DNA of 64,000 nt, from sequence record MZ189261.1, one strand, 5' to 3'. Position numbers and translations under genes: made by a program. Below are positions 10,193 to 11,024 of the stretch, piece by piece. Origin of the DNA: Escherichia phage S143_2. Positions within the stretch are counted from its first letter, which is position 1, and every line of letters starts with the position of its first letter. The notes under the pieces are model-generated. The model searched no databases. It had not been told where the DNA came from and saw only the letters and a program-made list of their open reading frames with translations.

Positions 10193-10269
10193 TGGTCGAG
10201 ACAGAAGGATTCTAACCTTCAACCTACGGATTAGAAGTCCGTTGCTCTATACAATTGAGCTATGCCTCG
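10193..10269 (-). tRNA. tRNA-Arg (anticodon UCU), CCA encoded
   Basis: Hand-folded cloverleaf: acceptor CGAGGCA/TGTCTCG, D-arm GCTC..GAGC, anticodon loop CTTCTAA, T-loop TTAGAAT. Confidence 0.85.
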
Positions 10270-10273
10270 TATT

Positions 10274-10348
10274 TGGCGGACGTGATAGGATTCGAACCTA
10301 TAACCAATCGCTTAACAGGCGATCGCTCTGCCATTGAGCTACACATCC
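10274..10348 (-). tRNA. tRNA-Asn (anticodon GUU), CCA encoded
   Basis: Acceptor GGATGTG/CACGTCC, anticodon stem ATCGC/GCGAT, loop CTGTTAA, T-arm ATAGG TTCGAAT CCTAT. Confidence 0.8.
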
Positions 10349-10352
10349 AAAT

Positions 10353-10439
10353 TGGTGGGGAGTGATGGAGTCGAACCACCCGAGTCGCAATGACAATGGA
10401 TTTACAGTCCACACCGCTACCTCTACGGGATAACTCCCC
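10353..10439 (-). tRNA. tRNA-Tyr (anticodon GUA), long variable arm, CCA encoded
   Basis: Acceptor GGGGAGT/ACTCCCC, anticodon loop CTGTAAA, T-loop TTCGACT. Confidence 0.75.
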
Positions 10440-10451
10440 TAATTCATAATT

Positions 10452-10526
10452 TGGTGGCCCTGGGTGGAATTGAACCACCATCTGGCGATTATGAGTCGCT
10501 TGCTTGAACCTTCCAGCTACAGGGCC
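10452..10526 (-). tRNA. tRNA with anticodon CAU (Ile lysidine-type by T4 synteny, or Met)
   Basis: Acceptor GGCCCTG/CAGGGCC, anticodon loop CTCATAA, T-arm GGTGG TTCAATT CCACC. Confidence 0.75.
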
Positions 10527-10527
10527 T

Positions 10528-10603
10528 TGGTGCTGATTGACGGAATCGAACCGCCGACCTTCTCATTACAAGTGAGTTGCTCTACCTACTGAGCTAAATC
10601 AGC
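10528..10603 (-). tRNA. tRNA-Thr (anticodon UGU), CCA encoded
   Basis: Acceptor GCTGATT/AATCAGC, D-arm GCTC AGTAGGTA GAGC, anticodon loop CTTGTAA. Confidence 0.8.
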
Positions 10604-10608
10604 AAAAC

Positions 10609-10698
10609 TGGCGGAGGCGATAGGATTTGAACCTATGAGTCGCCGGAGCGACTGCCGGTTTTCAAGACCGGTGCATTAAACCACTCTGCCACGCCTCC
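10609..10698 (-). tRNA. tRNA-Ser (anticodon UGA), long variable arm, CCA encoded
   Basis: Acceptor GGAGGCG/CGCCTCC, anticodon stem CCGGT/ACCGG, loop CTTGAAA. Confidence 0.8.
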
Positions 10699-10700
10699 AG

Positions 10701-10774
10701 TCTCCATACAAGGATTTGAACCTTGGGCCTCCTGATCCCAAATCAGGCGCTCTACCAAACTGAGCTACACGGAG
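10701..10774 (-). tRNA. tRNA-Pro (anticodon UGG), no encoded CCA
   Basis: Acceptor CTCCGTG/TATGGAG, anticodon stem CCTGA/TCAGG, loop TTTGGGA; 2-nt spacer to tRNA-Ser. Confidence 0.8.
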
Positions 10775-10784
10775 TAAATTAAAT

Positions 10785-10858
10785 TGGAGCGGATAATGAG
10801 AATCGAACTCACATCATCAGATTGGAAGTCTGAGGTAATGCCATTATACGATATCCGC
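10785..10858 (-). tRNA. tRNA-Gly (anticodon UCC), CCA encoded
   Basis: Acceptor GCGGATA/TATCCGC, anticodon stem TCAGA/TCTGA, loop CTTCCAA. Confidence 0.8.
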
Positions 10859-10863
10859 AAATT

Positions 10864-10950
10864 TGGTGCGAGAAGTGGGACTCGAACCCACAAGGAAATC
10901 ATTCCGCAGCATTTTAAGTGCTGTGCCTTTACCAATTTGGCCATTCTCGC
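10864..10950 (-). tRNA. tRNA-Leu (anticodon UAA), long variable arm, CCA encoded
   Basis: Acceptor GCGAGAA/TTCTCGC, anticodon loop CTTAAAA, T-arm GTGGG TTCGAGT CCCAC. Confidence 0.8.
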
Positions 10951-10951
10951 G

Positions 10952-11024
10952 CTGGGAATAAAGGACTCGAACCTTTGCATCCTGGAATCAAAATCCAGTG
11001 CCTTACCAACTTGGCTAATTCCCA
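10952..11024 (-). tRNA. tRNA-Gln (anticodon UUG), no encoded CCA
   Basis: Acceptor TGGGAAT/ATTCCCA (U1:A72), anticodon stem CTGGA/TCCAG, loop TTTTGAT; 1-nt spacer to tRNA-Leu. Confidence 0.8.

Follow-up and report, generated by a model that had tools for sequence, protein, structure and literature searches.

The ten-gene tRNA locus of Escherichia phage S143_2 as a probable segB-less allele of the T-even tRNA operon

Why does the transfer RNA (tRNA) locus of Escherichia phage S143_2 hold genes for tRNA-Tyr and tRNA-Asn, both of which T4 does without? The locus lies in a stretch of 64,000 nucleotides (nt) of sequence record MZ189261.1, here called the window. The original prediction, based on cloverleaves folded by hand, described ten tRNA genes and proposed that Tyr and Asn occupy the slot in which T4 carries two small stable RNAs. 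That T4 lacks both genes is borne out by its record (NC_000866) and, for tRNA-Tyr, by Chihara et al. (2026, PMC13096335). The answer reached here is a different one: with a probability of about 85%, the locus is the segB-less allele of the T-even tRNA operon, of the type found in T2L, RB1 and RB3, carried by a Mosigvirus that belongs to the ST0/p000y group.

Ten tRNA genes and the small RNAs C and D

Run on the whole window, ARAGORN called ten tRNA genes, all of them minus-strand genes within 10193-11024, and a scan with Rfam RF00005 recovered the identical ten and no further match (Table 1). Nine of them scored 60-74 bits (E values of 1e-10 to 1e-14), and tRNA-Tyr scored 30.2 bits, the gathering score being 29. 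The ten tRNA genes are real, and the list, order and anticodons of the original prediction agree with both programs. Tyr and Asn, which had been described as intact-looking, were both accepted by ARAGORN, both exceed the Rfam gathering score, and neither was rejected. The spacers, given earlier as 1-10 nt, measure 0-12 nt; Gln directly abuts Leu (0 nt), and a single nucleotide separates Pro from Ser and Thr from the gene with a CAU anticodon. The CCA end is encoded by eight of the ten genes, Pro and Gln being the two without it.

Table 1. Features of the S143_2 tRNA locus in transcription order, with positions in the window. Percentages are nucleotide identities.
Feature	Position	Strand	Evidence and remarks
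T4-type middle-promoter-like element (putative)	11094..11118	-	MotA box TGCTTTA, 12-nt spacer, -10 TATTAT; read against the published consensus
tRNA-Gln(UUG)	10951..11024	-	ARAGORN; Rfam 67.4 bits; 100% to RB3, 89% to T4
tRNA-Leu(UAA)	10864..10950	-	ARAGORN; Rfam 64 bits; 99% to T4 and RB3
tRNA-Gly(UCC)	10785..10858	-	ARAGORN; Rfam 63.3 bits; 99-100% to T4 and RB3 (100% to RB3)
tRNA-Pro(UGG)	10700..10774	-	ARAGORN; Rfam 66.8 bits; 99% to T4 and RB3
tRNA-Ser(UGA)	10609..10698	-	ARAGORN; Rfam 62.6 bits; 100% to RB3, 99% to T4
tRNA-Thr(UGU)	10528..10603	-	ARAGORN; Rfam 72.9 bits; 96% to T4
CAU-anticodon tRNA	10452..10526	-	ARAGORN; Rfam 59.9 bits; RB3/T2L allele; 100% to RB3
tRNA-Tyr(GUA)	10353..10439	-	ARAGORN; Rfam 30.2 bits; long variable arm, weak D-arm; 100% to RB3, 98% to T6
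tRNA-Asn(GUU)	10274..10348	-	ARAGORN; Rfam 74.1 bits, top score of the array; 100% to RB3
Preferred 27-bp SegB homing-endonuclease target (predicted)	10272..10298	-	GGTTCGAATCCTATCACGTCCGCCAAA; 3' end of tRNA-Asn; unique in the window
tRNA-Arg(UCU)	10193..10269	-	ARAGORN; Rfam 71.1 bits; RB69/Shfl2-type allele
114-amino-acid open reading frame (ORF), RB69 ORF150c family	9830..10174	-	Between tRNA-Arg and rnaD; 93% to RB69 ORF150c
rnaD homologue (T4 species 2 small stable RNA)	9714..9833	-	blastn 86.8% to T4, 90.7% to RB3; 98% to the RB69 sequence
rnaC homologue (T4 species 1 small stable RNA)	9569..9707	-	blastn 97.8% to T4, 99.3% to RB3, full 139 nt
Intrinsic-terminator-like hairpin	9499..9526	-	GCCCCTTCCGAAAGGTTGGGGC followed by TTTTTT; operon end; read from sequence; homologous to the hairpin after T4 rnaC

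An array of this composition is already known, as a published T-even allele annotated in many genomes. The novelty that had been implied for it does not hold: the array was published for T2L, RB1 and RB3 by Brok-Volchanskaya et al. (2008, PMC2330249), who sequenced these tRNA regions and found Met(CAU), Tyr, Asn and Arg genes without segB, and the Tyr-Asn segment is present in 433 phage records at a coverage of at least 80%. ARAGORN gives the same ten-gene order for the window, RB3, ime09, ST0 and p000y. With RB3, RB1 and T2L the window shares the ten genes, their order, the lack of segB, a SegB site in tRNA-Asn, and rnaD and rnaC downstream. Identity to RB3 is 95-100% for nine of the ten genes; RB3 differs in its tRNA-Arg allele (~84%), in having rnaD directly after Arg, where the window has the 114-amino-acid ORF in between, and in its backbone, which is that of a Tequatrovirus, whereas the backbone of the window is that of a Mosigvirus. 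The Mosigvirus phages p000y (MK047718), ST0 (NC_041990) and JK36 are 97-98.5% identical to the window across the entire operon with its ORF, rnaD and rnaC, and show point differences only; for p000y, in which the ten tRNAs are annotated, the value is 98.5% over a 1.5-kb region. As a discovery the locus carries little weight, since the array, its difference from T4 and the explanation by SegB homing have all been published.

The transcription order in the T4 record is Gln-Leu-Gly-Pro-Ser-Thr-Ile-[segB]-Arg-rnaD-rnaC. The slot between Ile and Arg, to which the original prediction had assigned RNA species 1 and 2, holds segB, a GIY-YIG homing-endonuclease gene, and rnaD (species 2) and rnaC (species 1) both lie downstream of Arg; the check corrects the T4 gene order given earlier. 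Nor do Tyr and Asn stand in place of the two small RNAs, since the window keeps its own rnaD and rnaC, and RB3 (NC_025419) has Tyr, Asn, rnaD and rnaC all in one array. With Tyr and Asn beside RNA C and RNA D in two genomes, the two pairs are not alternatives for one slot. The idea that Tyr and Asn are replacements for the T4 RNA species, or their intact ancestors, can appeal to the absence of both tRNA genes from T4 and to a tRNA-like T-arm in rnaC, which has an exact 11-nt match, GGTTCGAATCC, to tRNA-Asn (z = 3.5). This match, however, is the universal T-loop and is found equally in tRNA-Leu (z = 3.4), and rnaD scores below zero (z) against Tyr and Asn and has its best tRNA match in Ser. Homology of the T4 RNAs to Tyr or Asn was rejected by local alignment with shuffle controls, the generic T-loop motif being all that is shared; this was the comparison that had been proposed together with the original prediction, and it gave no specific homology. 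In addition, neither ARAGORN nor Rfam calls rnaC or rnaD of T4 or of the window a tRNA, and no Rfam family matches them, permissive E values included. Refuted by the T4 record, by the RB3 record and by the blastn matches of rnaC and rnaD in the window, the replacement or ancestry of the two RNAs retains practically no credence.

A 2010 review (PMC3014915) listed RNA C and RNA D as lacking a known role. S143_2 is shown to keep both, and rnaC is 98-99% identical across T4, RB3, RB69 and the window, which represent two genera, where neighbouring protein-coding DNA is 75-93% identical. Both RNA genes are also present in the RB69 sequence, unannotated in its record.

A separate doubt concerns tRNA-Tyr, which might be a pseudogene in decay that persists as a passenger of the array. 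Its score in the whole-window Rfam scan is marginal (E = 0.028), a low value that was traced to the poor D-arm, whose weak stem does not form in the minimum-free-energy fold, and the T6 orthologue has been reported as relatively unstable (PMC13096335). The other parts of the molecule are sound, namely a perfect acceptor stem of 7 base pairs (bp), an anticodon stem of 5 bp (GUGGA/UCCAU), the loop CUGUAAA, the long variable arm and the T-arm. Decay is also hard to reconcile with acceptance of the gene by ARAGORN, its complete conservation in RB3 and the identity of 85 of 87 nt with T6, variable arm included. Identity is 67% to tyrT of E. coli K-12 by direct alignment and 94% to a copy on plasmid pEC881_2, and the anticodon-stem differences from this copy are compensatory. 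Finally, the T6 orthologue was seen by northern blot and rescues infection (PMC13096335). A pseudogene is very unlikely.

SegB target and mosaic structure of the locus

By tblastn of T4 SegB against the whole window, segB is absent from the tRNA locus; the only match, at 32965-33171 (GIY-YIG region, 38% over 71 amino acids, E 9e-7), suggests another seg-like homing endonuclease there. What the locus does have is the preferred SegB target of Table 1, a site predicted by sequence match, which contains GGTTCRANTCC and CCAR. It differs from the equivalent site in tRNA-Ser exactly at G6, A16, G18, A26 and A27, the five T2L positions of PMC2330249. The same study located the preferred 27-bp site of SegB at the 3' end of tRNA-Asn and found, in crosses of T4 with T2L, that segB is inherited at ~100% and that the Met-Tyr-Asn-Arg region of T2L is excluded. 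In the T6 record (NC_054907) the layout is CAU-Tyr-segB-Arg, with segB where the window has Asn; from T4, Tyr would have been lost in addition. SegB would cut at the 3' end of tRNA-Asn and home with co-conversion of the flanking DNA, and it is proposed that T4 lacks Tyr and Asn for this reason. Because the tRNA-Asn of the window carries the preferred target, the T4 layout is most likely the derived one and the window has the segB-less allele.

Comparison with the other layouts fits the segB-less type at the level of single genes. T4, with eight tRNAs, has the same locus as the window, an upstream promoter region that is 99% identical, genes from Gln to Thr at 89-99%, rnaC at 98%, rnaD at 87% and a terminator after rnaC; the alignment holds at ~99% identity from a point 100 nt before Gln to the end of Thr and is lost within the CAU tRNA. 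T4 differs in having segB between Ile and Arg and no Tyr or Asn, in a CAU allele at 61-65%, in an unrelated tRNA-Arg and in lacking an ORF150c-like gene as well as the CCA end of tRNA-Ser. T6 shares tRNA-Tyr, with a difference of 2 nt, but segB takes the position of Asn there, the CAU and Arg alleles are those of T4 type, and Pro and Ser are missing. RB69 (NC_004928), the reference Mosigvirus, shares the backbone of the window and, at 93-100%, its Arg allele, ORF150c, rnaD and rnaC; unlike the window, it has only a CAU gene of T4 type and Arg, preceded by ORF151c, and is without Gln, Leu, Gly, Pro, Ser, Thr, Tyr and Asn.

Mosigvirus phages from the ST0/mar005P1 group match the first 25 kb of the window at 97-98% identity, and within Mosigvirus the tRNA locus is polymorphic: RB69, mar005P1 (strain mar009P5) and GADS24 have CAU and Arg only, preceded by a 516-nt ORF, and the window, p000y and ST0 have ten tRNA genes. 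The sequence of the locus is a mosaic. Its RB69-type part comprises rnaC, rnaD, the 114-amino-acid ORF and tRNA-Arg, at 93-100% to RB69; the stretch from tRNA-Asn through Gln, together with a trna.2-like ORF, shows 95-100% identity with RB3, ime09 and PinkRuby versus ~80% with RB69. For the trna.2-like ORF itself the values are 94-98% to T4, RB3 and ime09 and 81% to RB69. The change from one part to the other falls at or inside the initial ~14 shared bases of tRNA-Arg, and its distance from the cut point of SegB is between a few and ~20 bp. From this pattern we infer a recombination event, in which a Tequatrovirus-like block reaching from trna.2/trna.3 through tRNA-Asn would have replaced an RB69-type segment of ORF151c plus CAU; that a SegB-induced break started the exchange is speculation. 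Some Tequatroviruses, G4498 and Shfl2 among them, have this junction of Asn with an RB69-type Arg as well, and Arg alleles have therefore been shuffled in both genera. The polymorphism of two or ten tRNAs in Mosigvirus is documented here with a clean Tequatrovirus-like patch, which illustrates how modules are exchanged in nature at a hot spot of a homing endonuclease.

Codon supply and tRNA-cleaving defences

The identity of the CAU gene bears on what the array supplies. The label Met, under which it appears in ARAGORN, the GenBank records and PMC2330249, derives solely from the anticodon. A search of 5,424 E. coli genomes gave as its best match a gene that likewise has a CAU anticodon and that PGAP annotates as tRNA-Ile (81.6% along the entire length); the two have the same anticodon arm and share the acceptor pairs C4-G69 and C5-G68. 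These two pairs are determinants for TilS. Considering the E. coli match, the shared acceptor pairs and the enrichment of AUA codons in the phage (see below), the gene is most likely a tRNA-Ile2, reading AUA after lysidine modification, and not a tRNA-Met. It is only ~65% identical to the allele of T4, T6 and RB69, and most likely represents a second allele of the function that tRNA-Ile serves in T4.

Codon usage was compared by one ORF procedure between 49 ORFs of the window (16,801 codons) and 37 ORFs from 50 kb of an E. coli chromosome (13,593 codons). Every tRNA of the array reads something that the phage uses more than the host. The most enriched codons are AGA (10.8x) and AUA (4.9x), followed by ACU, UCU, ACA, UCA, CCU and CCA at 2.4-3.6x, and GGA, UUA and CAA are enriched as well. 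Among the amino acids, the highest enrichments over E. coli are those of Asn (1.60x) and Tyr (1.56x). These enrichments support the classical supply explanation and offer a plain reason for the presence of Tyr and Asn; the function of the array in this AT-rich phage is probably to strengthen the decoding of AGA, AUA and those codons for Gln, Leu, Gly, Pro, Ser and Thr that end in A or U, and to supply Asn and Tyr.

Alternatively, the Tyr-Asn pair, joined by His in some phages, could be kept mainly as an anti-defence module, which would substitute for or out-titrate host tRNAs lost to tRNA-targeting immune nucleases, with codon supply as a secondary benefit. The link between phage tRNAs and tRNA-cleaving host defences that was raised in the original prediction is real for tRNA-Tyr. 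Chihara et al. (2026, PMC13096335) reported that Septu cleaves tRNA-Tyr in the variable arm, that T6 tRNA-Tyr rescues infection when overexpressed or amplified with the help of SegB, that deletion of the tRNA-rich region of T6 sensitises the phage, and that T4, without tRNA-Tyr, cannot escape. By analogy with its T6 orthologue (98%, same variable arm), for which the effect has been demonstrated by experiment, tRNA-Tyr of the window would top up the tRNA-Tyr pool under cleavage by Septu (PtuAB) or retron-Eco7, and may thus act as a buffer against these systems. Since the tRNA-Tyr of T6 is itself cleaved by Septu and wild-type T6 remains sensitive (PMC13096335), such protection would probably be a matter of dosage, which speaks against defence as the main role. 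A wider circulation of the genes does favour it: tRNA-Tyr relatives at 94-95% occur in unrelated rV5-like phages and in 273 E. coli plasmid records, one plasmid carries Asn and Tyr side by side, and PinkRuby has tRNA-His at the same spot, so that Tyr, Asn and His make up three of the four tRNAs with GUN anticodons. This GUN set is cleaved by colicin E5. However, no known defence targeting tRNA-Asn was found, the plasmid tRNA-Asn is only 71% identical to that of the window, meaning that the pair did not move as a unit, and Asn and Tyr are the most enriched amino acids of the phage proteome, as the supply model predicts. A mainly defensive role is possible but doubtful. Unlikely, and clearly more so, is the extended version in which the distal part (Tyr, Asn, His) would be a mobile anti-defence module, with Asn too countering a GUN-cleaving nuclease, gained from a Tequatrovirus by recombination starting at the SegB target.

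Several points weigh against the favoured combination of a segB-less allele with a supply function, the marginal score, poor D-arm and reported instability of tRNA-Tyr among them. The codon argument is correlative, its host sample of 37 ORFs comes from a single 50-kb stretch, and Lys is 1.5x enriched in the phage, yet no tRNA-Lys is encoded. The direction of evolution, with T4 as the derived form, rests on three or four layouts and not on a phylogeny, and the mosaic junction could lie close to the cut point of SegB by chance, given that ordinary recombination can use the short sequences which tRNA genes have in common.

The distribution of the tRNA-Tyr gene is of some interest in itself. By blastn it has no match on any E. 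coli chromosome and is matched by plasmid copies only, which are 94% identical and stem from 273 plasmid records of 269 E. coli genomes; it is also ~95% identical to the genes of rV5-like phages such as FV3 and slur12. In pEC881_2 (L010, 3921-4747), which may be a phage-plasmid, an Asn-Tyr-Thr-Ser cluster lies beside ligase and integrase genes. One tRNA-Tyr family seems, from these identities, to circulate among unrelated coliphage elements; a joint movement of Asn and Tyr with the plasmid copies was considered and rejected, given 94% identity for plasmid Tyr and only 71% for plasmid Asn. In PinkRuby (L007, PP925839), which has eleven tRNAs, tRNA-His(GUG) is found at 1806-1881 between Asn and Arg with a spacer of ~115 bp. 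The His insertion of some Tequatroviruses uses this same variable junction, and the three GUN-anticodon tRNAs concerned belong to the queuosine family. The Tequatrovirus-like patch is relevant to the choice of therapeutic T-even phages for hosts with tRNA-cleaving defences of the Septu or retron type.

Operon flanks and allele variation

The locus lies between the trna.2-trna.4/ipI genes and the genes on the e.8 side, in synteny with p000y, RB3, T4 and RB69, and in blastn against T4 and RB3 the flanks match at 94-95% between 10193/10507 and 11594. Identity to T4 is 99% in the 100 nt that precede tRNA-Gln; besides the putative middle promoter, a consensus scan found a further sigma-70-like match, TTGACT-17-TATCAT, at 11131-11159. 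The T4 cluster is known to yield a single precursor transcript, which starts from a middle promoter just upstream and stops after the gene for species I RNA (PMC2330249). By analogy, one transcript would run in S143_2 from the middle promoter upstream of tRNA-Gln through the ten tRNAs, the small ORF, rnaD and rnaC to the terminator ~1.6 kb downstream, and the mature RNAs would be freed by host enzymes, through RNase P, 3' trimming and, for Gln and Pro, addition of CCA. A consensus terminator scan of 9300-11500 returned no terminator, missing the hairpin at the operon end owing to an internal U-U mismatch.

The 114-amino-acid ORF begins 18 nt past tRNA-Arg, and its stop codon overlaps the start of rnaD; there is no such ORF at this position in RB3 or T4. 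It matches phrog_3355 (unknown function) with an E value of 1.7e-50, and no Pfam family at threshold.

Several tRNA genes occur as distinct alleles. In tRNA-Gln all 8 differences from T4 fall in the anticodon stem-loop and are compensatory, the remainder of the gene being identical; the two alleles read CUGGA-UUUUGAU-UCCAG in the window and RB3 versus UAGCA-CUUUGAC-UGCUA in T4 and T6. Changes at positions 32 and 38 of the anticodon loop, as between these alleles, are of a type reported to evade anticodon nucleases. For tRNA-Arg, all 77 aligned positions match RB69, and the allele is also present in Shfl2 and G4498; the tRNA-Arg of T4 and T6 is not orthologous (54% global identity). The RB69 gene (L005, 14784-14862) has two extra G residues in the 5' strand of the anticodon stem, 79 nt versus 77 in the window, and ARAGORN sets its anticodon at position 37, which could reflect a sequencing error or a damaged gene. 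The tRNA-Ser of the window encodes CCA(G) as in T2L, and this CCAG difference between T2L and T4 has been described before (PMC2330249).

Public annotations of the tRNA locus are inconsistent. The ime09 record (NC_019503) gives nine tRNAs, placed on the wrong strand, and leaves Tyr out, the ST0 record annotates none of its ten tRNAs, and T6 has an annotated tRNA-Thr that ARAGORN does not call.

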